Assembly: GCA_001938485.1 (NCBI GenBank)
Contig: MQRK01236706.1
Coordinates: forward strand, 1-56,201
From: Girardia tigrina
Taxonomy: Eukaryota
Direction: 5' to 3'
Length of the DNA stretch: 56,201 bases
Position 1 is the first letter of the stretch; the number at the start of each line of letters is the position of its first letter. The notes beneath the pieces were generated by a model. It was not told the DNA's origin and made no database searches. It saw only the letters and a list, made by a program, of their open reading frames with translations. Of the stretch, positions 1,363 through 52,730 are shown one piece after another. The translations under genes were made by a program, and so were the position numbers.

Positions 1363-4300
1363 CTAAAGTTTATGGAATACCATCTTTAACAATAACTGAC
1401 AACAAAAAGTCACGATTTTATTAATATAATCATCATTCAAGTGTTCAATCATGTTGCTCATTCATACATTCAAATCATACCAACTTATTCTGATATTAAG
1501 TGTCTCAATATTAATAAATTTAGTAATTTTAAATAATAAATGTATAATGTGTAATCAATGCAACTTGAAATGCAACCTTCAGAAAGTAACTTTTGAAAAT
1601 TTAAAGAATGTTATTTTTCTCCATTATTTTTAAAAAAAATTGTTAATAAACTCAAGCTTTCAAAATAAAAATTATTACTTAGTTTAAAAATAAAGGAAAA
1701 CAGTGAAAAAACACAAAGCTTAAGGGACGAAAAATTCAAAGCACACGAAAAACGAAGAAATGTTAGAGACCAAAAAGTGTCCGGTTTGGCAAACAACAAA
1801 GAAGGACATTTTAGAGGAAAATGTTTAAATGTGAAGTGTAGTCATTGTTATAGAATGAAACACTTAAAAATGCGTTGTCGCATAGACTCGAGGAAGAAGA
1901 GCTAAAAGCTCAAATGTTAATTCATTGCATTGATGATGAAGATGTTGTTTGTGAAATTAAATTACGGAAACTAAAGAGTGTCAAGGAAATATCTGAGTTC
2001 GTTGCACTCGTAGACGAAATAAACCACGAAAAGAAGAGCAGGATCAATGCTGTCCGAAGTTATCGAAAGGTTGTTCAAAACAACAGGGCTCCTGAGGTAA
2101 CTAAAAAATGGGTAAATCAGAGTCAGTCGAGAAAACAACTCCTAAGAGAGGAATCAACCTCCAAATCAGAGTTCAAATGTTATACTTGTCATTAACCAGG
2201 ACATTTCAGCCGAAACTGCCAACAAAGAAGACATGTGCAGTGTTGGAATTGTAAAGAGACTGGGCACATCAGTCGAAACTGTCCTAACAGACAGCCATTG
2301 GTTTGTTTCTTGTGCGGAAAAAGGGACATAGGTGAACTCAATGTCCAGAGATACGCTGTGAAAAATGTGGCCTAAATGGGCATCTAGCAGCGGCATGTTT
2401 AGGGAACTCTATCAGACAGAATTATGGTTACGACAATGGAAGATCGAGAATGCAGAACAATGATCGAAAATTTAAAATCAACACGATGAACGAAGATGAA
2501 GAACGCACATTTGATGATAATGAAGAAAAAAATGACAAGACGTACCCAAACGACTGGGCTCCGCCAATTGTGGAGTTGGTGGGAGCCGAGTGCCACTGAT
2601 CTTAGAAGATAATTCCCATGGATTCGGATGCGAGCTGGATGTGCGAACGATGAATAAGGTCTATGGATTTGTGAAAAAGAAATTTGAGCAAGTATTCTAT
2701 GTTAACACGTTGATTGAGGATCAGAAATCAGAGATATGTTATAGTAAAATGCAGGGGCGTCCGAGCGTTACAGTGGAAATTCAGGGGAAACAGTGGGAGT
2801 GTTTGTTGGATACAGGAGCAGGTGTTAATGTTATGAGTAAGAAGTATTATCAAGATTTAAATAATTTGGTGTTAGAAAAATGCGATATCAATTTGAGAGG
2901 TGCCAACTATGGAAAATTGAAAGTATTGGGTAAAATAGAGGTTGAAGTAAATGTATGTCAGACAAGGAAAGCAGTACCATTTATTGTTGTGGAGAGTGTG
3001 GTTCCGGAACTGATAGGAGGTATAGTCTACATGAAAATTTTCGGTTATTCCATACAAAGAAATGAACCTCAAGACAATAATGCATCAAGGGAAGCACGTG
3101 GAAGTGTGTGTAACATCGAGACGAAATTCGGCAGGGTGATAAGGCCAGGAGAGAGATTAAAAAGAGCGTTAGATTGCATTGGTAAAGTAGATTCAAAACT
3201 ATTAGATGTCATTCAAAATCAGGCAGAAGTATTCAGGGCTGACAAATGGGATATCGGATGTACCAGTTTAGCAAAACATCATATTAAGACGAATGGAGAG
3301 CCAATTAATTTAAAACCTTTTCGTCAACCAATGCATCTCGAAGAAAAAATCATGGAGACTATAAAGAATTTGTATGATAATAATATCATTCGGAAGTGTA
3401 ATTCACCTTGGAACACACCATTAATTTGTGTGTGGAAAAAAGAGAAGAAAGATATTCGTATCTGTTTGAATTTTAGGCGTTTAAATGCAATAACGAAGAG
3501 ACAAGCTTTTCCGATACCCAATGTTGATGAGATGTTGGATGCTTTAGGAGGTGCAAAGTATTTTAGCTCGATTGACCTTGGAAATGCTTATTATCAGGTT
3601 GAGCTGGACGAAGAATCTCAAGAGAAAACGGCCTTTTCTACAAAGCAAGGACAGTATTTTTTTACTCGTATGCCGTTTGGTATAGCGGCTACACCGGGAA
3701 CTTTCCAAGAGATGATGACAAAGGTAGACGGAGGAATCCAGGGTGCCACTGTATACTTAGATGATATCTTGGTATACACAAAAGATCGGGAGCAACACTA
3801 TATTGTTTTGAATCAAGTTTTAGATAATATTAGGAAAGCAGGATTGCGGGTGAACCCANNNNNNNNNNNNNNNNNNNNNNNNNNNNNNNNNNNNNNNNNN
3901 NNNNNNNNNNNNNNNNNNNNNNNNNNNNNNNNNNNNNNNNNNNNNNNNNNNNNNNNNNNNNNNNNNNNNNNNNNNNNNNNNNNNNNNNNNNNNNNNNNNN
4001 NNNNNNNNNNNNNNNNNNNNNNNNNNNNNNNNNNNNNNNNNNNNNNNNNNNNNNNNNNNNNNNNNNNNNNNNNNNNNNNNNNNNNNNNNNNNNNNNNNNN
4101 NNNNNNNNNNNNNNNNNNNNNNNNNNNNNNNNNNNNNNNNNNNNNNNNNNNNNNNNNNNNNNNNNNNNNNNNNNNNNNNNNNNNNNNNNNNNNNNNNNNN
4201 NNNNNNNNNNNNNNNNNNNNNNNNNNNNNNNNNNNNNNNNNNNNNNNNNNNNNNNNNNNNNNNNNNNNNNNNNNNNNNNNNNNNNNNNNNNNNNNNNNNN

Positions 4301-7300
4301 NNNNNNNNNNNNNNNNNNNNNNNNNNNNNNNNNNNNNNNNNNNNNNNNNNNNNNNNNNNNNNNNNNNNNNNNNNNNNNNNNNNNNNNNNNNNNNNNNNNN
4401 NNNNNNNNNNNNNNNNNNNNNNNNNNNNNNNNNNNNNNNNNNNNNNNNNNNNNNNNNNNAAAGGATCTTTGCACACGAATGCTGATATGCTTTCAAGGAT
4501 GAATTGTGATACGTGTACTCAATGTTTGACGCAACACGAGGAAGCTAAGAAAGAAAAAAATCAAGACGCGTGCACTGGGTGTTGTATCAGAAGATGACAC
4601 CACAAAGCCACTCAAAGATATTATCTGGGAAACCCATCGGATGTTGGCACACGCGGGTGCAAGAAAAGTTGAGTATTATTTAAGAGACTCTAAGGATTTT
4701 GACAAGCTGAAAGGTAAGATCAAAGAGATTNTACGNAGTTGTGAATCATGCCAAAAGTATAAAACATATACGGCAAAAACAAAAGAGAACACGATAAAAT
4801 TAGAAGCTGCCGAGGTTTTTGAATGTATTTATATGGATATTTGTGGACCGTTGAAGGAGACTTCTGGGAAAAAGAAATATATTCTAGGTATCATTGATCA
4901 GTTCAGTAAATAAATTACGTTATTAGCAATATCGAAACAAGATGAAGAGTCGATAATAAAAGGAATAATGCGGAATTGGATAGTGAAATTTGGTTCACCC
5001 AAGGCGATGAATGTGGATTGGGGTAAGGTTTTTGAATCAAAAAAGATGAAAGAGTTCGCAGAGAAACAGAATTTTGAAATTAGATTCTCCAGCCCATATA
5101 TATCATCATAACACCAACGGACAAATTGAACGACAATTCCGTACGGTGAGAGAATTGATAAATGCAACATTACATGAAAGAAAAAGTTCCGACTGGGCAG
5201 AAATTCTACCAGAGATCGAGTTCTCATTAAATGCCACATTACAGACGACTATCGGGATGAGTCCAACTGAAATCATTTTTGGAAGACGCATTAGCAGGGA
5301 GAAATGGGATGGAAAAAATAGCAAGACATTTCAATATGAGCGGGACCAGAAGCCTATCACGCGACGACAATTCTTCCCAGGAGATGATGTATTGGTAAAA
5401 GTAGAATCTCGAACAAAAGATCAAGGGAGATACGACGGGCCATATAAAGTAGTTCGAAAAGTACATGATAGAAGATATGTTCTTGAAGATATGTCTGGTA
5501 AAACATGTGAAAGAAATGTGGAGAAAATTAAAAAATTCTTGTGTGCGGGGGTGTACGAGAATGTTGTTGTTAATTTTTTAATTTTCAGAAATAAGAATTT
5601 TGGTTTTTAAAAATTTCGAATTATAATCGAAATTAAAAAAAATAATAGAAAATAGAAATAAAAAAAAGAAAAGAAAAAAAGTAAATTTGTTTAAATAACA
5701 AATTTAAACTGTGGTAGATTAATAAATTTTTGCAAGTTTTTAATTTGTTTTGATTTAGAATGGAAGATAATTCCCAACCTAACAATCAAATATATGAAAG
5801 ATTTCAAGATGAAAGAAGCCGAAAGACGTATGCACCATACAAATGATTCAGAACTCATAAATTACGACATTGTACAACTAAAATTGATAATTGAAAGAAT
5901 ACTGAAAACGATATAATTTTAATTCTATTTATTACAACAATACATCATCACTTAGACGTGGAAGCATGTTGCATATTTTTTTCAGTCTCCTCAAATATAT
6001 CAACAGCGAAGAGTGAAATTTAAATTTATTTTAGTCTTTATAGTCCGAAATAAAATGTGATTTTTAAAAATCGTTTTTTTATATTATTTATTTGTTATTT
6101 TGATCACTTATAATTTTTTTTATTATTTTGCAAAGGTTCTTTCTCATCTAGAATATGTCAAATAATTTTTATTCAAATATTAGAGTCCCTATTTATTCAA
6201 TAAAATAACTATTGTTAGCTCAAAACAAAAAGCAAATTCTATTACTAAAAGAACAATGTTTAAAATATTATTTGTCATTTTTAATTTTATTTATACAATG
6301 CAGTCATTGTTCAAGAGTTAATTTATGTAAATAATTTTAAAATTTTATATAAAGTTATTTAAACACATAATTCTCAGATAAAATCAATTAAAAATTAAGC
6401 TATTAATTAAAAAAAATAAATAAAATAAAATAACATGTTGATAAAATCACACTAAATCCAATGCGGTTACTTTTAGGGGGATGGTATTTGGTAGGCGCAT
6501 AAATCTTTGTACATTACATTTAATTTTATTATCTAAGGCTGCTGATTTGCATTTGTTGTTTGAAATTTTATTTAGTGCTATCTTATTGTGACTCAAAGGA
6601 AATAGGAGTGTGGTATGAAAGAAACGCTTGTAAGCAATAAATTTCTGATTGTGAAAAGGATTGAAGATTTTTAATCTCCCCGAACAGTTCTTCTGGATCA
6701 GTGTATCTTTCCTTGAATCGCCGTGATACTTGGAATTTACCTGGGTACACATTTGCACATAACTTCTATCAGAAAGATCACTCAATAATTGTTTACATAT
6801 GAAAGACTGCCTTTCCTTTAAATATTGTCATTACTCTCTCTGACTTCAATTCGGTCGGAAAATCATTTTGATTTCCATTTCTGGGTTTCCACCTTCCGCT
6901 TTGAGAATCTCAGCAATGACCCTCATTCCTTCGTGATACTTTTCCATTACTTAGCTGTTATATTGATACTTTTACTTCTAAAATTGGTTGACTTTCATCG
7001 AACACTGATTACATGCCAAAATTAGTCATGTCAGCTCACTCAATAAGACATCTGGATTGAACTTTTTGGAAGAATATTTTTCCAATTCTTCGTTCTTGAT
7101 CGTTGATACAGTAATTAAATTCATTATGACCAAAAAATCGTATACCTAATGAAGTGTGTTCCTTCCTTTCGATTTTCAATTGATCTTTCAACTGCGTAGC
7201 AAATAAGGGTATAAAATGTATTTGTTTTCATGACTGGGACGATATATTAGTTGATCCGGTTCATCAATAACACTTACAAGCAATGTTTTCGTCATTGCGA

Positions 7301-21738: not shown

Positions 21739-24700
21739 CTTAAACAGCAATAGAAATTTAAATTAAATTTATTATTTTATTTTAATTTACCAATGTTTCT
21801 GGACAAGTCACCAATTCGAACTTCTGTAGAAGACTGACAATGGCCCATTTCGTTTCGAGTAATGCGAATCTCATCCCAACACAATTCCTCGGGCCCATTC
21901 CAAATGGCATAAACGAATATGGACTGTTGAGTTTTTTATTTTCCGGACTGAATCTGCAATCAGAGTCAATTTAAATACTTTTTAATGTTTCAGTTTTGTA
22001 TAATTAGTTTGATATGATAGCATCAGTCTTTGTAATTCCCCAGAAAATTGAGAAAAGAGACATCATTATTTGTGTGACCCTCCATGGTAAACATCATTTT
22101 TGGAAGTACTAGACGATTTTTATATTTCCATCTGATTTCTTATTTCTACTTAATCTTTTGTAATGTTTCAGAAATACATTTATAAATTTAATAAAATATT
22201 TTTAATAGTAGACAATTCTCAAATAAAATATGGAAATTGGAAATTTAACTTGTGAAAAAATTGATTATTGGTTAAATCAAACCACATTGGCTGATCAAAT
22301 GGACATGACAAATGTTACTTGGACACTTGAAGAGGTTCATTTAAAATATATTGGTTAAAATAAATAAACGTTCTTTTCAATTATTATTCTTTTATAGATT
22401 AAAAAATACTGTGTAACAGCAATTCTTCTTTAAATACTTAAATCAAATATCAAATTAACTTTTTAATTATTAGAAACCGGGAAAATATATCCCCCTTTCG
22501 AGAAAACAGCTTTGATCCTCGATAAACAAGCAAGTTCACACAGAGGGGGGTCAATGTTTTCGGAAGAAAAAAAATTGATACGATTCTGTTTTGACATCTT
22601 CATTTGTAAAGTGTTGATTTGCGAGAAAATTCGATAATAACCGAAAAAAATGGTAATCTGTTTGAGAGATGTTCGACCATAACGACAAATAGCTGTTGAA
22701 TGTCCACAACTTCGCGAGAATAACAATTTTTTCGTTCATTTCAACAGTAATTCAGATCACGGTTTACGTTTTACTTTGTTTACTAGCGTTAGCTTTTCTG
22801 TTTTTGATATATCTTGACTAAGAATTCCATATGCGTTTTTAGTCATTTTAAAAGAGATCGATCTTTGTCCATCAGTTATTTTCAGGAAATAAAGGGTAGC
22901 AAATGACAGGATGGGTTAGTCATGAAGTTTATTGATGGCATGATTCTTTACGTAAATTAAAACAATCATTTCTCTGTCGATATGATAAATGTTTGACGAG
23001 GATTTTCTTGTTCTTTACATACATGTTATTTATCTTTTTTATTTTACTATTTGTTAATTATCCATCGGTGATAGCAATTATGATTCTTTGTTGATGTTAA
23101 AACAGATACCGATTCCCTGCTGTGGTAAGTCTATATTTGATATATTGTATACAGCTATTTTATAGCTGTTTTATTGGGTTCTTGCTCAAAAGACATTATC
23201 ATGAACACAAAACTTTATTTCTAAAACTATTTGAATTTTTTAAACAAATATTTTTCAGGAACTTTTGCACTTTCTTTTTACACAACCATTATAAATAAAA
23301 TAGATATAAATAAAAATATGATTAGTATATTTTTTACAAATTAAAATTCTATATTTTTTTAATAAAAAATTATAGTGAATTAAAATTTTGTCACAAAGAT
23401 TTTGTTGCGTCTTTTATTAATTTTTCAATTTTATGGTACATTTAAATTTACCTGTTTCTCAATTACATTTTCCAAAATAAAATTAAAATTGTATTCTTCA
23501 GTATTTTCTTCTTTTAATTGCTTTTTAACTCGTGCATCTGTACATAATTTGTCTAATGTACATTAGAAAAATTATGTACAGATGCACGAGTTAAAAAACA
23601 ATTAAAAGAAGAAAATACTGAAGAATACAAACAAATAATTAAAATTCCATATTCTGAAGGATTTAGAGCGTTTAATAAGAGTATTTATAGAACAATAAAT
23701 AGTGCTAAAGTAGTCCCTGTCACATCCAAAGTTTCCTCTCAAACAAATCGAAAACAGTTTGTGATTTGCAAGCTAATCTGGTATATAAATTTAATTGTCA
23801 CGGGTGTCAAAACTCGTACATCGGAGAGACAAATCNNNNNNNNNNNNNNNNNNNNNNNNNNNNNNNNNNNNNNNNNNNNNNNNNNNNNNNNNNNNNNNNN
23901 NNNNNNNNNNNNNNNNNNNNNNNNNNNNNNNNNNNNNNNNNNNNNNNNNNNNNNNNNNNNNNNNNNNNNNNNNNNNNNNNNNNNNNNNNNNNNNNNNNNN
24001 NNNNNNNNNNNNNNNNNNNNNNNNNNNNNNNNNNNNNNNNNNNNNNNNNNNNNNNNNNNNNNNNNNNNNNNNNNNNNNNNNNNNNNNNNNNNNNNNNNNN
24101 NNNNNNNNNNNNNNNNNNNNNNNNNNNNNNNNNNNNNNNNNNNNNNNNNNNNNNNNNNNNNNNNNNNNNNNNNNNNNNNNNNNNNNNNNNNNNNNNNNNN
24201 NNNNNNNNNNNNNNNNNNNNNNNNNNNNNNNNNNNNNNNNNNNNNNNNNNNNNNNNNNNNNNNNNNNNNNNNNNNNNNNNNNNNNNNNNNNNNNNNNNNN
24301 NNNNNNNNNNNNNNNNNNNNNNNNNNNNNNNNNNNNNNNNNNNNNNNNNNNNNNNNNNNNNNNNNNNNNNNNNNNNNNNNNNNNNNNNNNNNNNNNNNNN
24401 NNNNNNNNNNNNNNNNNNNNNNNNNNNNNNNNNNNNNNNNNNNNNNNNNNNNNNNNNNNNNNNNNNNNNNNNNNNNNNNNNNNNNNNNNNNNNNNNNNNN
24501 NNNNNNNNNNNNNNNNNNNNNNNNNNNNNNNNNNNNNNNNNNNNNNNNNNNNNNNNNNNNNNNNNNNNNNNNNNNNNNNNNNNNNNNNNNNNNNNNNNNN
24601 NNNNNNNNNNNNNNNNNNNNNNNNNNNNNNNNNNNNNNNNNNNNNNNNNNNNNNNNNNNNNNNNNNNNNNNNNNNNNNNNNNNNNNNNNNNNNNNNNNNN

Positions 24701-27700
24701 NNNNNNNNNNNNNNNNNNNNNNNNNNNAAATTCTACCGCATGCTGCCTATTCACCAGATTGTGCCCCATCAGATTATCATCTGTTCCGATCAATGCAAAG
24801 CGCTCTTCGGGACCAGCACTTCAAAAACCAGGAACATATAAAAAAAATGGCTGGAACAATGGATCGCATCAAAAGACCAAAACTTTTTTTCGATGGAATT
24901 CATAATTTGCCTGAAAGATGGTCGAAAGTCATAATTAACGATGGAAAATATTTTGATTAGAATAAAACATATTATGTCATATAAATAAACTTGTCTGTTC
25001 TGCAAAAAAATCCAAAAAACTAAGTTATACACCTAATAGAAAGTAAGTTAATAAAAAGAATGGAAAAAATAAAAATATTTATGGAAATATTTCCCAAATA
25101 GGATCTTCGAAACATCTTAAATAGTAAAATGACAAATATGAAAAATAAATAAATTTTATGAAATAGATACACAATTCAAATCTATGTTTTATAACTAATT
25201 AATAATATGTTATAACTAATATACAAATTTATAAAACTGTGTTTCGACGGACGTCACGCATGATCAAACATTTTGTATTTCAGTGACCTTAATGATTACC
25301 AATGGTGATTGTTCAAATGTCTTGTGACTACAATTTAGGCCGTAATTAGTTTGAATCATTTACTAATTCAAAGTGTCCATCTAAAGATCACACAATTGGA
25401 CTTGTTTCAAGGCTCTTCTAGTTCATCAGAATGTTATATATCTAAATATAAATATATTTTTCGATAATATTTAAGGAAACATGAAAACCATGTATCCTAC
25501 TGTTTCTTCCATTCTACTAGTGTAAATGGTTTCAACAAACTCGATCAACATAGTAACTGAACGCTGAGTTTGGTAAAGGACTAATGTCACACATGTTGGG
25601 AGAATTGTTGAGTTCATAAAATTTTTGAATTTACAATATGATCAAAATTAATATTTTAAAAAATTACATTCCGTAAAATAGTGTTATAGATATGTTAAAA
25701 TAAGATTTTCCGAATTTAATGTAAAAATTAATTTATGTAAGAAATAAAATAAATTTTACTGGGTTTATTAAAATATTTATGCAAAGTTAAAAAAGTTATT
25801 TTTAATTTTGATGGAAATATTTAATTGAAATAAAATAAAAAAGAATATAAAGTTTAATATTTTATTTGTGAAATGAAAATAAACTAAACTATTTTTTGTA
25901 AATTTTATTTTACACGATTAAATCGAAGTGAATTAAAAAGCAATTTTAATTTTACTTTTGAAAAACAATTATTATTGGAAATATAATTTTATTTTACGTA
26001 AAAAAGGGGTAATTTAAAAGTTGTTAAATTAAACGAAAATTGCGATTTTAATTATATTTTCAAAAAGTTTTTATTAAGTCTAAAAGTAATTTATAAACTA
26101 TAATGAAAACGAAATGAAAATGCTATTTTATAGAATAGAGAAATGTAATTGAGAAACAGTTAAATTTAAATGTACAATAAAATTGAAATTTAATAAAAGA
26201 CGCAACAAAATCTTTGTGAAAAATTTTAATAAATTCACCTAATAATTTTTTTAAGAAGTATAAAATTTTAATTCGCAATAAATAAAAAAACCATATCTAT
26301 ATTTATATCGATTCTTATTTATAATGGTTTGTGTAAAAAGAAAGTGCAAAAGTTTCATCGAAAATATTTGTTTAAAAAACTTAAATTGTTGTAGAAATAA
26401 ATTTTCGAGTTAATGACGTCTTCTTTTGATCAAGAACCCAATAACATATATACATCCATGTCAGTCAGACACAAGACTATGAGAATATTTATCAGCCATA
26501 TAGTTGTAAACCTCATCTAATTACGACTACTGAACATATTAACATTGTTCGTAACCTAAATATCTCCAAGTTGCAATTTACACTTCTTGCTTTTCAGATT
26601 TAATATTAGAATCTAATGGTATAATAGTAACATACTTCTTTTACTGATAAAAGAATATAGCTAAATATTATTCCATGTGAAATACTTTTTACTTCTTTAT
26701 TGGTATTACAGAATTCATGACTTATCTTGAGTATGATCACAATGTAACTGTTTAGAAGATAATGAAGTTAAATATGTAAACAAGATAAAAAATCATTATT
26801 TTAATAGATAATAAAAATCCAGTACGAAGTGAAAAGGAAATCAAATGTCAAAATACTAGTGCGTTCAAAATCTAACATAGATAAGAAGACACCCAGACCA
26901 TATTACAATCCTTTGCAGATAAGAATCCTAAATATGCATTTAACGACAAAAATCCATTTAAAAACAACGAATATAAAAATAAACAGCCAATCAAATATAA
27001 TGAAATATATCGAAACGGATTTAAAGTACTCCTATTCTCATTTACGAATCAGTGAAAGTATATAAAAAATGTTCTTATCCCTAACACACTCAATACACAC
27101 ATATAATACATGCCTGGAAAACAATACATACCTTATACACACCCGGTTAATCGTCGATTAAATGCAAAAAAATTTAAATTAAATAAAATGAAAAACATGA
27201 AAGAAACTCAATATTCTATGATCAGCAGTGCTAATAACACTGAATCATGGAACATTAATATTATTATTAGCAGGATGTCAAAAGACAGTGAATGGACATA
27301 GCCATGTCGTTATAAAATGTTTAGAAAATCCAGAGTTTTGATCAATTAATAAAAAGGTAATCAATTAATTAATAAATGGATACCATCGATTAACATGGAA
27401 TGGCTAAACAGAGCATATAATTTAGACAAATATTATTTTTTTAAGTAAAGAAGGCCCAGGGCTCCGTCAAAGAAAAAATAAAAAAGAGCCATTCATCAAT
27501 CCAATTGAGGCATTTTTAGCAAAATTAAAATGGGATGTTAGGACAGAAATGATGAATTTCCAGAACCGATTGTCAATCAGTCATCATGAAAGAGTTGCCG
27601 TATTAAGGGAGGTATTACTTTTAGCGGAATTAATTACTTTAAAATTTACATAAAATTATATTCTTATTATTTCAATAAAAAATTTCGTTGCAATTATTTG

Positions 27701-48859: not shown

Positions 48860-51800
48860 GAATAAATTATACCACTCTAGGTTCACACATCAGTGGGTCA
48901 TTTGGGATGATCTGAAAGTAATCGGGCAGCTGCTAAGTATACAGAGTGACTATACAAAGTATTGTTGTTTCCTGTATAAGTGGAATAGCAGAGCAAGAGA
49001 ACAGCATTACATCAGACAAGACTAACCACAAAGAGAGATGCTACAGCCTGGGTGTATTAATGTCAGCTATCTACCATTAGTGGATCCCAGGAAGAGACTG
49101 CTGCCGTCACTGCATATTAAACTAGGGCTAATGAAGGCAATGGATCGAGGTGCCGCTGGTTTCCGGTCCTTGTAGGAGAGGTTTCCGCACATAAGCCAAG
49201 TGAAACTAAAGGAAAGAATCTTTGTTGGGCTACAAATTCGTAAAGTTACGTTGGATCAAAACTTTGACGCAGCACTTAAGCCAGATTAACTTGAAGCGTG
49301 GAAAATCTTAAAAGCCGTCATCACACTGTTTCTCAGGAATGTAAAGAATCTAAATTACCAACTCATAATCAATAACCTCCTACAGTCCTACAAGCGTTTA
49401 AGATGCAATATGTCCCTTAAAATTCATTTTCTCTACTCTCACCTAGATGTTGCGGTCGGAAATCCATTAAAACATTACAATATATTCACAAACACGCAAA
49501 CATTAGCACCCAGCACACAGAAAGAAAGAAAAGTCAGCAAATTTTATACATGTATTTAATGCTTACAACATATAGACAAATCCACAACTGCCGAGACACC
49601 CCAGAAAGTCAGTATGACATCGAAGATATTGGTTGTGAGCTAAAAATACATCATAAAGAAAAAAACAGACAAAGTCGAATAAAAACTCACCCGATAAAAA
49701 AGGACGAACAACCGCCCCAGTTAAGTACTACAAAGGGGGGTCTGCGAAAGCAAACCGTCGATGTCTGAAGAACCCGCAGGTAGAGGTAATAAACCCTAAA
49801 AGAATAAGAAATCAATTAAAATAAACACAAAAAATTAATAAAGTCGCCTACCGAATTATCCATTAGAGCTGAGAGGTCAACCGACACCCTCGGCGTAGCC
49901 CCTTGCGAGACGGATCCATGGGCAGAGCGTGTAAGATAACAGCGGATCCTTGAAAGAAATTATTCACCCTTAAAGAAAAAAAATTAATTAAAAAAAATAA
50001 GACAAAAATTAACAAAGTCACCTACTGGATTATCCAATGAAGCTACGGAGTCAACCGACCCTCCCACGAAAGATCTTCGCGCGGGCAATCCGTGGACAAA
50101 ACCCGCGAATTCGTAGGTCACTCTGAGAAAAGTTATAGGCCCTTAAAGGTCAAACAATTAATTAAGAAAAATAGAAAATTAATTAATCTTACCATGAGTC
50201 AACTCAGAATCTGAAAATAATCGTCAGCTGACGAATCATCCATGAATTAGCAGCAGGCATGTTTCAGATATTTGGGAGTGTGTAAAGACACACGAGCATT
50301 AGATCCTATAATAAAATAAAAAAGTTTTAAAATTTTCGAAAATTTTTAGAAACACACTTACCAGTCTAACCAACCAGCATCGCAGAAATCTCAGACAGTT
50401 GGTTGGCGAGATTCAGTTGGACAGAGGAGGACGACAGGATAGCATATCTACAATATAAAAGGAAAATCATTTTTTACCAAGTCGCACAAAAAATTTTGAA
50501 CTAGAGAAACCGAATCTACGTTACACGTTACGCCAATATATTAGAAGAATCTCGATATACAAGCATCAAACCGACGAGGAGAACGACAATCTATCCAAAG
50601 AAGCCGGCGATACCATCCAACGGAAAATTGTTTACCGAATTCACGAGGGAACGACCGAGAAAGACACTTCACTTAACCGACGTGTCGACGAGCGAAAAGG
50701 ACACTTCAATTAACTGACGTGTCGACGAGCGAGAAAGATAAACAGACAAACCGATATTGTTGATCGAGATACACTCCGGGACCCGTTGAGATCCTTTCAT
50801 TGTAAATAATTTTGTTGATTTCGTTTGCGTTTATTTCCTTAATATTGGTTAATTTATTACGTCAAATAAATGTGTTTACTGATGATGCGTTTAACTTTTA
50901 AATCCAATTAACCCGTAAATCCGAAACCCGGCCATCTAGCGCCTCCGTCTAGGCGGGTTTCTTTCCCGTCGTCGTCGCCGTCCCAATGAATCCTGCGGAA
51001 ATCCATATAAATTTCGGCAATCCGTCGAAAGCGACCTCTAATCCAAATCGGAGTGTCCCCTTAAGGATATAATTTGATAAATTAAAGCAAACCTCTCCTG
51101 AGAACAATTTTGATAATTTTATATAAAATAGATTTTATTTGTTATGAGTTTTGTCATTCCTTTGAAAAAGAAAAAGGGAGAGAATCTGGAAAATTTATAG
51201 TAATATTTTTCTGTAGCAAGCTTAAATAGGGAAAAATTCTTAGGATTATTATAACGATTTATTGCTATTTCTATGACAAATAATTTGACTTTATTATCGA
51301 ATATTTACTTAAATTAGGATTGTTATAATGCTTCGTTGCGATTTTTTATGGCAAATAGTTGACTTATTTAGCTTTTATTTAAACCGCTTTGTTGAGAACT
51401 AAACTCTCTAATAATTTCGATAAATATCGCGGTAATAACTTCATTTATTGACTGTTACCATTGTAAATGAAATTAAAATTCTTATAAAATTTTATGTTGA
51501 TAAACTTTTATTATAAATTTCTACCCGATGGTAAATATTTCTACAATAATTTATTTGTAAATAAGAAATGGAATCTCCCAATGAATCCGATAATAATTCC
51601 GTCTTTTATAAATTTTATTATTATCATGAATAAAAATTTTCTTAAGCGAGAATTTCCTCTATTTAATGGATTTAAGTAGAATTTTGAAAATCATAAAATT
51701 AATTACTTTTATGATGAATTTATTTTATGATGAAATTTTGCAATTCACCGATTTTACCAAACTTACTTACCGACTTTATAATTTAATTTTTAATGAATGA

Positions 51801-52730
51801 ATAAATTTTACATGAATTTTCTTTATTTTATCGGTACAAATTTATTTTAACGAGCATACTCTACAATCCTGAGCATAGGAATTTATCAATTTTATTTTTA
51901 ATCCGTTTTATAAAATAAGAAAAGTGCCGATATTCTTGTAGCGAATCATGAAAGAAAGGTTTTACGAAATTATAGCGTACAAAATGGAGGTTAGAGTCTC
52001 ATAATGGGCGAGCTCTTATTAAACGACTGAAAGGTTGAGGACTGTAAGTCTGAATGAACCAGACCCGTTATTGACAAATCCATGTTACCTTGATATTGAT
52101 ACAATAAAGTTTAAGAATCAATATGAACTACTGTTGAGACAAATGTACACTAGCTAAGGAGGCACCCTACTACTTCCATGCTACACAAATATGTTTGCGA
52201 CAGTGTTGCAAATTTGTTATCATCATGCGCAAGTCTCTCACACAACACAATACAGTAACCACCAGCCCATGTGCGAACATATCTATAGACATACTCCTAT
52301 CGATACTGACCCAGGTAGGGGGCCCACAGCTCATCCTACCTTTAACTGAACCCGAAGGCCCCTTGAGCTTGGCACTGCTAGGCAGATGTCAAGCAAGATA
52401 GGAGGCGTCCGACCCTATATATAATGTCATTAAAATCGAAGTAAATTTAGAGTGGGTTGTGGTTGACCCTTAACAACCACTAGGGGCTCAAGAGCTTTTA
52501 AAAATGTTTACACTCGAGAGAGTCGTGACATAGACTTCTTTCTTGCTAACCTTGGTGACGTCAGTGACGAACATGGGGAAAGATTTCACCAGAATATTGG
52601 TTGCTTGGAAAATCGTTATCAAGGCAAATGAAGTCAGGCTATGTTGGTAGACTACAGCTGGACTCTGAAGAGGGACACTACAGCCACTGGGTACAAGCGA
52701 AAGAGCAGTGGCAAGATGTTCTGAGGTGGC
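48860..52730 (+). mobile_element. Degenerate Chapaev3-like (CMC) DNA transposase split by a 3-kb solo LTR
   Basis: DLKVIG..YTKYCCFL..W.SRAREQHY, LHIKLGLMK and CNMSLKIHFLYSHLD up to 49447 resume at 52531 as DFFLANLGDVSDEHGERFHQ...YKRKS. Family name is from recalled motifs. Confidence 0.7.
49448..52530 (-). mobile_element. 3,083-bp solo LTR with 4-bp TSD (TAGA) and multiple internal short introns
   Basis: TG...CA termini; TAGA at 49444-49447 and 52531-52534; interrupts the HLD|FF codons of the transposase; ATTAAA at 49560-49555 on the minus strand. Confidence 0.85.

Follow-up and report, generated by a model that had tools for sequence, protein, structure and literature searches.

Organization of the locus

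Within the window, the whole 56,201-nt stretch of DNA that was analysed, positions 49448-52530 hold a 3,083-bp insertion with TG...CA termini and a perfect TAGA target-site duplication (Table 1). Of 150 homologues returned, 106 matched both halves of the interrupted frame, and in 101 of these the protein pieces on its two sides adjoin without a gap, and the ends of the insertion are therefore exact. The earlier note had described the insertion as splitting a transposase frame: the insertion and its boundaries are confirmed by the coordinates and the homologue alignment, but the name transposase found no support in Pfam and the interrupted frame already contains stops. The reading of the insertion as a solo LTR also holds, given its termini and duplication and the homologous LTRs that elsewhere precede a primer-binding site (PBS) and gag. 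The LTR family numbers hundreds of copies in the genome. Among 31 complete LTRs, 10 of which were chosen through a PBS search and are the 10 that bear a PBS, 17 have their own 4-bp duplication and four have neither feature. A Ginger-type DNA transposon was considered and rejected. The available part of the Ginger/GingerRoot account (PMC6839031) describes TG...CA ends and, for Ginger1, 4-bp duplications, but the window LTR is without long terminal inverted repeats, its termini sharing a few inverted bases only, and PBS and gag follow the homologous end.

Table 1. Features of the LTR insertion and its flanks in the window
Feature	Position	Strand	Basis
Solo LTR of a Burro-like env-bearing Gypsy element; U3 side 49448, U5 side 52530	49448..52530	+ (retro-sense)	TG...CA ends, target-site duplication; homologous end then PBS, gag-ubiquitin-env-protease
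Left TAGA of the 4-bp target-site duplication	49444..49447	.	sequence
Right TAGA of the 4-bp target-site duplication	52531..52534	.	sequence
Left piece of decayed transposase-like frame, interrupted by the LTR	49290..49445	+	sequence, homologue alignment
Right piece of the same frame	52533..52628	+	sequence, homologue alignment
RNA stem (possible pseudoknot) near U5 end; second PBS-like motif then inside LTR	52454..52490	+	covariation
Possible first intron; acceptor 50448 conserved, donor uncertain (50518 one candidate)	50448..50518	-	sequence, copy alignment
Predicted non-coding exon E1	50362..50447	-	sequence, alignment
Predicted intron 1, 56 nt, GTAAGT...TAG	50306..50361	-	GT 21/21, AG 18/21 aligned gaps
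Predicted non-coding exon E2, 113 nt, modest conserved hairpins	50193..50305	-	alignment
Predicted intron 2, 51 nt	50142..50192	-	GT 19/21, AG 20/21
Predicted exon E3, paralogous to E4 and E5; 116 nt here, 117 in most copies; with conserved hairpin near 50045-50065	50026..50141	-	alignment
Predicted intron 3; length 57 nt with donor 50025, 53 nt with donor 50021	49969..50025	-	alignment, motif detector
Predicted exon E4, a 117-nt duplicate of E3 unit with a hairpin near 49870-49890	49852..49968	-	alignment
Predicted intron 4, 56 nt, GT donor (GC donor unneeded)	49796..49851	-	GT 12/12 aligned E4-E5 gaps
Predicted exon E5, a diverged 105-nt paralogue of E3/E4 unit	49691..49795	-	alignment
Predicted intron 5, 51 nt	49640..49690	-	sequence, alignment
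Predicted last exon: ATTAAA 49560-49555, TGTA motif, then GT/T-rich tract; 3' end guessed	49535..49639	-	motifs

Parent element and its strand

A PBS-like motif follows the 52530-type LTR end at 176 genomic places and at none in the control. Its commonest form, found in 26 of 54 reads with overlapping loci counted in, matches the MLV PBS-Pro probe (PMC4587795) at 16 of 18 letters, and the primer site next to this end appears to be of the tRNA-Pro type; the 37 tRNA loci examined, drawn from 62 matches, included no tRNA-Pro gene. No recurring PBS was found beyond the opposite, 49448-type end among 59 ends that have TGG next. Searches in the minus-strand orientation adopted by the earlier note found no shared PBS or purine tract, a frequent match there being an unrelated repeat. 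On three near-identical contigs a purine tract does stand before an LTR start of similar kind, but the LTR in question failed to align to the window.

On contig G000:C231567, whose LTR matches the window LTR at 79-91% identity across three blocks, the region downstream of the LTR on the + sense carries gag, CCHC, a ubiquitin-like domain (E 7e-5), a fusion glycoprotein (PF24664, E 3e-81) and then, in one frame with the glycoprotein, an aspartyl protease, gag lying upstream of this frame. Matches to Bcl-xL before env (E 0.51) and to dUTPase after the protease (E 0.59) are singly non-significant and sit at Burro-like positions. A 2.7-kb scaffold gap in this contig is bridged by the gap-free L185 (82-92%). 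From the PBS the contig runs for about 21 kb to its end without reaching reverse transcriptase (RT), so that RT and integrase would lie beyond; in Burro the internal region is 20-25 kb long and includes RT-RNase H-integrase. Elsewhere in the genome a homologous LTR is followed by a PBS and gag-env-protease, in the orientation opposite to that of the introns. No element with two LTRs was found on 6 contigs examined, no RT or integrase contiguous with a window-type LTR was seen, and no continuous gag-pol was present on five further PBS-bearing contigs, where pieces of RT, integrase and transposase may derive from unrelated insertions. A search by integrase family gave no link to the LTR, and an Atlas search with the ubiquitin-bearing piece gave a lead only (0.77).

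The giant Burro-type Gypsy parent proposed earlier is supported by this array of domains next to a homologous LTR. In the available part of its published account (PMC6431247), Burro/GYPSM1 of dugesiid planarians likewise combines a gag with CCHC, a ubiquitin-like domain and an env related to mononegavirus fusion proteins before the protease; it has a long leader and a multi-kb LTR, and the weak Bcl-2 and dUTPase matches fall at the published positions. Burro also has MATH, BIR and ankyrin domains, none of which turned up when pieces of the leader and internal region of the window family were scanned, these copies being decayed and the contig ending before the 3' half. The same part of the account mentions no LTR introns or antisense RNA. 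The literature searches listed no account of introns in Burro LTRs; Grohme 2018, its supplements or Repbase may mention them.

Read from the + strand, the stem near the U5 end shows G.T in 10 of 44 rows at one pair, where A.C is absent (3 of 47 rows were left out). The sense-strand TATA and poly(A) motifs around 52418-52434 lack conservation, occurring in 30, 10 and 21 of 89. The side on which the PBS lies, the orientation of gag-env-protease and the wobble of the U5 stem establish that the genomic RNA reads the window + strand. The interval 49448-52530 thus belongs, as a solo LTR, to an env-bearing Gypsy element of Burro-like type with its genomic RNA on the + strand. Retroelements lose sense-strand introns, and the earlier note had placed a train of introns on the sense strand of the element, within R, and had the element replicate by way of an RNA left unspliced. 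The persistence of the introns in all copies would suit that model, but the three lines of evidence above indicate the opposite strand, the searches in its orientation recovered neither PBS nor purine tract, and we regard it as highly improbable. Because the genomic RNA reads the + strand, the minus-strand train is antisense and needs no escape from splicing; replication via an unspliced form of an intron-bearing RNA is not supported, and the rule of sense-strand intron loss is not overturned.

An antisense train of predicted introns

The train occupies the first third of the LTR, on the U3 side. As the earlier note had it, five evenly sized AT-rich segments with AG ends (GC 0.15-0.25) lie on the minus strand between GC-richer blocks (0.41-0.52); the unit period is 156-173 bp. 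A motif detector tuned on these same five segments made 33 calls on both strands of the whole window, five of them in the 0.72-kb train. Some details of the earlier description require revision. A GC donor was assigned to an intron at 49796-49847, but GT stands 4 nt upstream (49851) in 12 of 12 gaps and the intron more likely spans 49796-49851. For an extra intron at 50448-50530 the acceptor is conserved, but the segment as given begins with TA and the donor is uncertain. The ATTAAA signal is present, but only 17 of 100 LTR ends have it, while AATATA occurs in 61 and TGTA in 83.

In 103 LTR ends the same window-tuned detector made 230 intron-like calls antisense, 12 sense and 18 in Markov resamples. 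Across LTR copies whose relatedness makes the counts non-independent, exon-to-exon gaps measure 45-62 nt in 86 of 89 cases and 15 nt or less in none, and donor GT and acceptor AG are each present in 82 of 86 gaps at small tolerance (exactly, in 78 and 70), so that the retention of introns and splice dinucleotides among genomic copies is borne out. AG occurs inside the T-rich introns in only 21 of 3,142 windows, one of two alternative GT donors is kept in 39 of 42 diverged units (Fisher p 0.02), and the non-homologous introns 1, 2 and 5 share common splice signals and size. No intron-lacking copy was found among those checked. The train is the best-conserved portion of the LTR after the U5 end: of 30 other complete LTRs, 12-24 share it, and 1-5 share the middle 1.8 kb. 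Some family members give 0-1 intron calls, and the train may therefore be dispensable or diverged. The intron sizes agree with the 45-85 bp peak of short introns in planarians (PMC13594981). The LTR introns look selected as U2-type splice units, whose excision we predict.

Could the train instead work as DNA? An enhancer or nucleosome-spacing array in U3, with T-rich linkers every ~170 bp and splice-like ends that go unused, would agree with the period, with the tandem duplication through which the E3/E4/E5-type units arise and with the near-palindrome that is their most conserved motif, a palindrome that may resemble a nuclear-receptor site. We consider such an array unlikely, as GT and AG are fixed at the ends and AG is excluded within, alternative donors compensate for one another, introns 1, 2 and 5 are alike in signals and size without homology, and the wobble of the unit hairpin is asymmetric between strands.

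Coding capacity and folding of the exons

The predicted spliced RNA of the window holds no ORF, with a longest stop-free run of 60 aa and an ATG ORF of 28 aa, in accordance with the earlier failure to find a continuous frame across the exons. A gene that codes, or once coded, a small accessory protein in the manner of HTLV-1 hbz would be suggested by the 117-nt length (39 codons) of 34 of 57 E3/E4 segments, which are almost indel-free at about 57% identity, by several copies in which 100-122 aa pass without a stop and by one E5 frame that is stop-free in 13 of 14. However, pN/pS is 0.74-0.99 across the six E3/E4 frames and 0.76-1.05 in E5, fixed stops occur in 15, 20 and 11 of 21 representatives in the three frames (three mis-registered ones of 24 were dropped), all frames of E2 have stops, and only 1 of 25 copies outdoes shuffles (p<0.05). 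The pN/pS values and fixed stops argue against protein coding by the exons, and a gene of the hbz kind, now or formerly, appears unlikely, slightly more so than the DNA-level array.

The unit hairpin scores -7.0 on the minus strand against a null of -1.4 +/- 1.4, and -1.7 on the other strand; one of its pairs is G.T in 29 and G-C in 21 of 56 units. Taken as a whole, structure is poorly conserved (SCI 0.21). Folded singly, seven exon or upstream segments do no better than shuffles (z -0.95 to +0.06), nor do introns 1, 2, 4 and 5 (up to +0.74), and an alignment of E1, assessed without a null, gave no clear structure signal. Rfam returned no matches at E<=1 in 49400-49960 and 50030-52600. Hairpins of miRNA or mirtron type were rejected, as none of 11 segments, intron 3 not among them, folds better than shuffles.

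A model for the antisense RNA

Based on these observations, we propose that the conserved antisense introns probably form a spliced non-coding RNA gene internal to the LTR, a predicted regulator of element expression. A regulatory lncRNA, one of the products envisaged in the earlier note, is supported as a candidate product, its role being suggested by analogy. A minus-strand promoter in mid-LTR would drive an RNA of roughly 0.7-0.9 kb when spliced, whose 3' end would fall about 90-100 nt short of the LTR edge; neither a promoter nor a start site was identified for the antisense RNA. The introns would be kept in LTRs because the spliceosome cannot read them antisense in the genomic RNA, and reverse transcription would carry them unchanged into the two LTRs and, through these, into solo LTRs. 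Splicing may stabilise or export an RNA that is complementary to the genomic RNA at its 3' end. Such an RNA may in turn damp or time element expression, either by pairing or through silencing by small RNAs, a role proposed for the antisense RNAs of TART/HeT-A and BLV; we put this forward tentatively, as a possibility somewhat short of even. The 117-nt units with their fixed hairpin might serve as protein-binding modules of the antisense RNA.

Intron-dependent protection from silencing occurs in animals other than planarians. The mimicry idea of the earlier note can be transferred to the antisense strand: transcription and splicing would then matter in cis, a host-gene look keeping the LTR enhancer open or shielding it from silencing of intron-poor RNA. 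Many short, host-typical introns without coding purpose and a unit carried by every LTR would fit; the conserved exon length and hairpin suggest that the RNA product counts, and we think a purely cis role as improbable as the array. More speculatively, and with doubt prevailing, every LTR, the hundreds of solo ones included, could be a self-contained multi-exon lncRNA gene, in which selected host-like splicing marks the LTR as 'self', averts small-RNA or intron-sensing silencing and leaves its promoter open to use in stem cells; the repeated 117-nt exons with their hairpin would then bind a protein of the host or of the element.

The predicted regulatory RNA has its closest parallels in other antisense transcripts. 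In the env-bearing deltaretroviruses, as the available portions of the accounts describe (PMC10186651, PMC4855707), HTLV-1 hbz and BLV AS1/AS2 are LTR-driven spliced antisense RNAs, for which a lncRNA-like, provirus-regulating role has been proposed. These start in the 3' LTR, have one intron and splice into the internal region, and hbz codes a protein, whereas the window LTR has five or six predicted introns and a putative poly(A) site all within itself. Drosophila TART and HeT-A, in the parts of the reports available (PMC1636488, PMC2615633), make non-coding antisense RNAs with several short introns, partly in terminal repeats, and with intron size and spacing similar across diverged subfamilies; many of the TART introns measure 53-67 nt. 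The window LTR has the corresponding features at DNA level, namely a train antisense to the transposition RNA, several introns and no ORF. However, TART and HeT-A are non-LTR telomeric elements with long RNAs proven by RACE and ESTs, while splicing in the LTR is predicted; the LTR unit is compact, apparently ends inside the LTR, rides on solo LTRs and repeats a 117-nt exon.

What would such a unit imply? If the model is right, a TART/HeT-A design recurs in an LTR element that bears env and is unrelated to them; there the LTR alone contains the whole design, and the formation of solo LTRs multiplies it. The same parts of the TART and HeT-A reports leave open the role of introns in non-coding antisense retroelement RNAs (PMC1636488, PMC2615633), a question made directly testable by many diverged subfamilies in an RNAi-friendly host group. 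A large set of the multi-exon 'lncRNA genes' in such genomes may, on the same premise, be LTRs.

Conserved splice signals within the LTR

On the minus strand, the LTR carries five AT-rich segments of 51–57 nt, each ending in AG, between GC-richer blocks of 86–117 nt (predicted exons E1 to E5, running from 50447 down to 49691). Comparison of genomic copies indicates that these segments are a real feature with conserved splice signals, and their excision is predicted. An intron detector tuned on the window was run over the initial 1.3 kb of 103 LTR-type ends, a small number of which are chance motif matches: the antisense strand gave 230 intron-like calls, the sense strand 12 and Markov resamples 18. 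Such calls also occur in 5' LTRs bearing a primer site (PBS), 0–4 apiece. Gaps between exon matches, selected without use of the splice letters, measured 45–62 nt in 86 of 89 cases and ≤15 nt in none; thus no intron-less copy was found, in agreement with the earlier proposal that the introns are kept among copies. With small tolerance, GT and AG were each present in 82 of the 86 gaps (78 and 70 when exact), and AG occupied 21 of 3,142 four-base windows inside the predicted introns, copies not being de-replicated for these counts. A pair of GT positions, separated by 4 nt, follows the E3/E4 unit, and one tends to replace the other: among the 42 in-register sequences of 56 representatives, 20 have only the upstream GT, 10 both, 9 only the downstream one and 3 neither (p 0.02, relatives being non-independent). 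The train of exons and introns is common to 12–24 of 30 other complete LTRs, and the middle 1.8 kb to 1–5. The predicted intron sizes agree with the planarian peak of 45–85 bp given in PMC13594981.

Some borders had to be redrawn. The GC donor formerly assigned to intron 4 is probably not needed, as a GT 4 nt upstream is retained in 12/12 aligned gaps, and intron 3 has two possible donors. Of a possible sixth intron the acceptor alone is conserved; as delimited it begins with TA. E3, E4 and E5 are paralogues, and some subfamilies have one copy fewer; from such differences in copy number of the exon-plus-intron unit, the train would grow by tandem duplication. Of 57 segments of the E3-type unit, which share roughly 57% identity, 34 are 117 nt long and 10 are 116 nt.

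The ends of the element are exact, since the protein pieces flanking it join without a gap in 101 of 106 homologues matching both halves; together with the TG...CA borders, this upholds the earlier reading of a TAGA target-site duplication. The interrupted frame, called a transposase in the earlier note, matched no family in a Pfam search. The four bases preceding LTRs are often A/T-centred (e.g. CATT, AATA and TATA among the listed flanks), suggesting a weak target preference.

Strand of the genomic RNA

The earlier note had placed the introns on the element's sense strand, an orientation in which a search found no PBS or purine tract. Of 81 LTR ends corresponding to 52530 (the U5 side), 3 share a flanking motif, which occurs at 176 genome places (control, 0). 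On the plus strand it reads as a short T spacer and then a PBS-Pro-like sequence, 16 of whose 18 letters equal the MLV PBS-Pro probe in PMC4587795; host tRNA-Pro was absent among 37 tRNA loci checked. In contig C231567 a complete LTR, aligning to the window LTR at 79–91% with the intron train included, is followed by a PBS, a long leader and gag-env-protease frames: Ty3 capsid, CCHC knuckle, ubiquitin-like, mononegavirus-type fusion protein (E 3e-81) and protease. A weak Bcl-xL match ahead of env and a weak dUTPase match past the protease (E 0.5–0.6) are not significant alone. The C231567 leader contains a 2.7-kb scaffold gap, which a gap-free copy (L185) bridges. Finally, a covarying stem near the U5 end, with 78/88 Watson-Crick cells versus 43.9 in shuffles, accepts G.T on the plus strand, which is strand evidence independent of the PBS. 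Primer site, gene order and stem wobble contradict the sense-strand placement and together indicate that the genomic RNA is the window plus strand, the predicted introns being antisense and within the first third of the LTR.

The domain order of C231567 appears to be that given for Burro in PMC6431247, and the testable features of the parent element agree with Burro, as had been proposed. Across the six contigs examined, none carried an element with two LTRs, and no RT or integrase was contiguous with this LTR family in the contigs examined. On three near-identical contigs a purine tract stands ahead of a similar LTR start, but the LTR in question failed to align to the window. The PBS-to-gag leader exceeds 6 kb in L185 (1-6400) and L187 (pieces of G000:C219690 and C231567), with only short frames lacking clear Pfam families. 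The crossing stems at the U5 end would form either an H-type pseudoknot or a pair of alternative folds, and the inner PBS-Pro-like motif may be a decoy or a second tRNA contact.

Features of the window and of related contigs
Feature	Coordinates	Strand	Remark
LTR	49448-52530		TG start, CA end, TAGA on either flank
Intron 3 donor	50025 or 50021	-	
Intron 4 donor	49851	-	GT
Sixth intron as proposed	50448-50530	-	
Exon-plus-intron unit	49691-50141	-	3 paralogues; 2 in other subfamilies
Direct repeats, 37 nt	50670-50745		starts 50679 and 50716; core TGACGTG
Two overlapping stems	52454-52490	+	second covaries strongly and crosses first
Second PBS-Pro-like motif	52481-52489	+	~45 nt inside LTR end; in nearly all 47 representatives
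Low-complexity repeat arrays	2536-4597; 23557-24960		open in many frames; unrelated to LTR
Low GC (low-complexity array)	24001-25000		GC as low as 0.10
Nested LTR	L280:102-3490 (G000:C173678)		own TATA duplication
Two solo LTRs	L135 (G000:C97720:3000-12999)		6 kb apart; each with own 4-bp duplication
Asparaginase-like frame	L287:1376-2245 (G000:C212335)	-	290 aa; N-terminal match, E 1e-17

Nature of the exons

The train might instead be a decayed coding gene. In a coding test on 25 predicted spliced RNAs a single one exceeded its shuffles at p<0.05, pN/pS is 0.74–1.05 across all exon frames tested, and E3/E4 have a fixed stop in each frame; these results uphold the earlier view of the exons as non-coding. 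An Rfam search of the exons matched no family, and single exons folded individually showed no unusual folding. Alignments yielded one small minus-strand hairpin (-7.0 versus -1.4 ± 1.4; other strand -1.7) that shows G.T wobble, and modest hairpins in E2; for E1 they gave no clear signal. The proposed ATTAAA poly(A) signal is unconserved among copies; the same region has AATATA in 61/100 and TGTA in 83/100.

A model for antisense introns

What would this orientation mean for the element? Antisense introns would be invisible to the spliceosome in genomic RNA and would therefore be copied into both LTRs by reverse transcription, then persist in solo LTRs. The paradox of intron retention is thereby removed. 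A minus-strand promoter in mid-LTR would yield a spliced RNA ending within the LTR. The 37-nt direct repeats, whose core is presumably CRE-like, are a candidate enhancer between two promoters; a rival reading makes the train itself a DNA-level enhancer array. Conservation of the train across subfamilies implies, on sequence grounds, a benefit to the replicating element. The function we prefer is regulatory: an antisense RNA whose sequence is complementary to the genomic RNA's 3' end would damp or time expression. Splicing would serve stability or export of this RNA; alternatively, it might act in cis, as a 'licensing' effect. The train can be likened to the antisense RNAs of TART and HeT-A, which are non-coding and contain several introns (PMC1636488 and PMC2615633), splicing here being predicted, and is reminiscent of the spliced antisense transcripts of HTLV-1 and BLV (PMC10186651 and PMC4855707). 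Unlike these, it is wholly confined to the LTR, in an element of Gypsy type. The literature searched, which did not extend to Grohme 2018, its supplements or Repbase, gave no description of a train of this kind in the LTRs of Burro.

The family in the genome

In the 1.43 Gb searched (255,254 contigs), an 18-nt motif of one LTR end has 403 exact matches and a 20-nt motif of the other has 52; LTR copies range from 92% to about 65% identity. Judging by the type of element, the host is likely a dugesiid planarian. Among 31 complete LTR units of 1.6–4.2 kb, 17 are flanked by a 4-bp duplication of their own, another 10, chosen by PBS search, carry a PBS and 4 have neither. One same-family LTR (L280) is nested in another, PBS-bearing LTR, ~240 nt from the host LTR's end and within a TA run. 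The flank of one of the paired solo LTRs (L135) resembles, by eye, a Gypsy reverse-transcriptase motif. The asparaginase-like frame may be a host gene or cargo; it is situated downstream of a PBS-bearing LTR, at a distance of a few kb.
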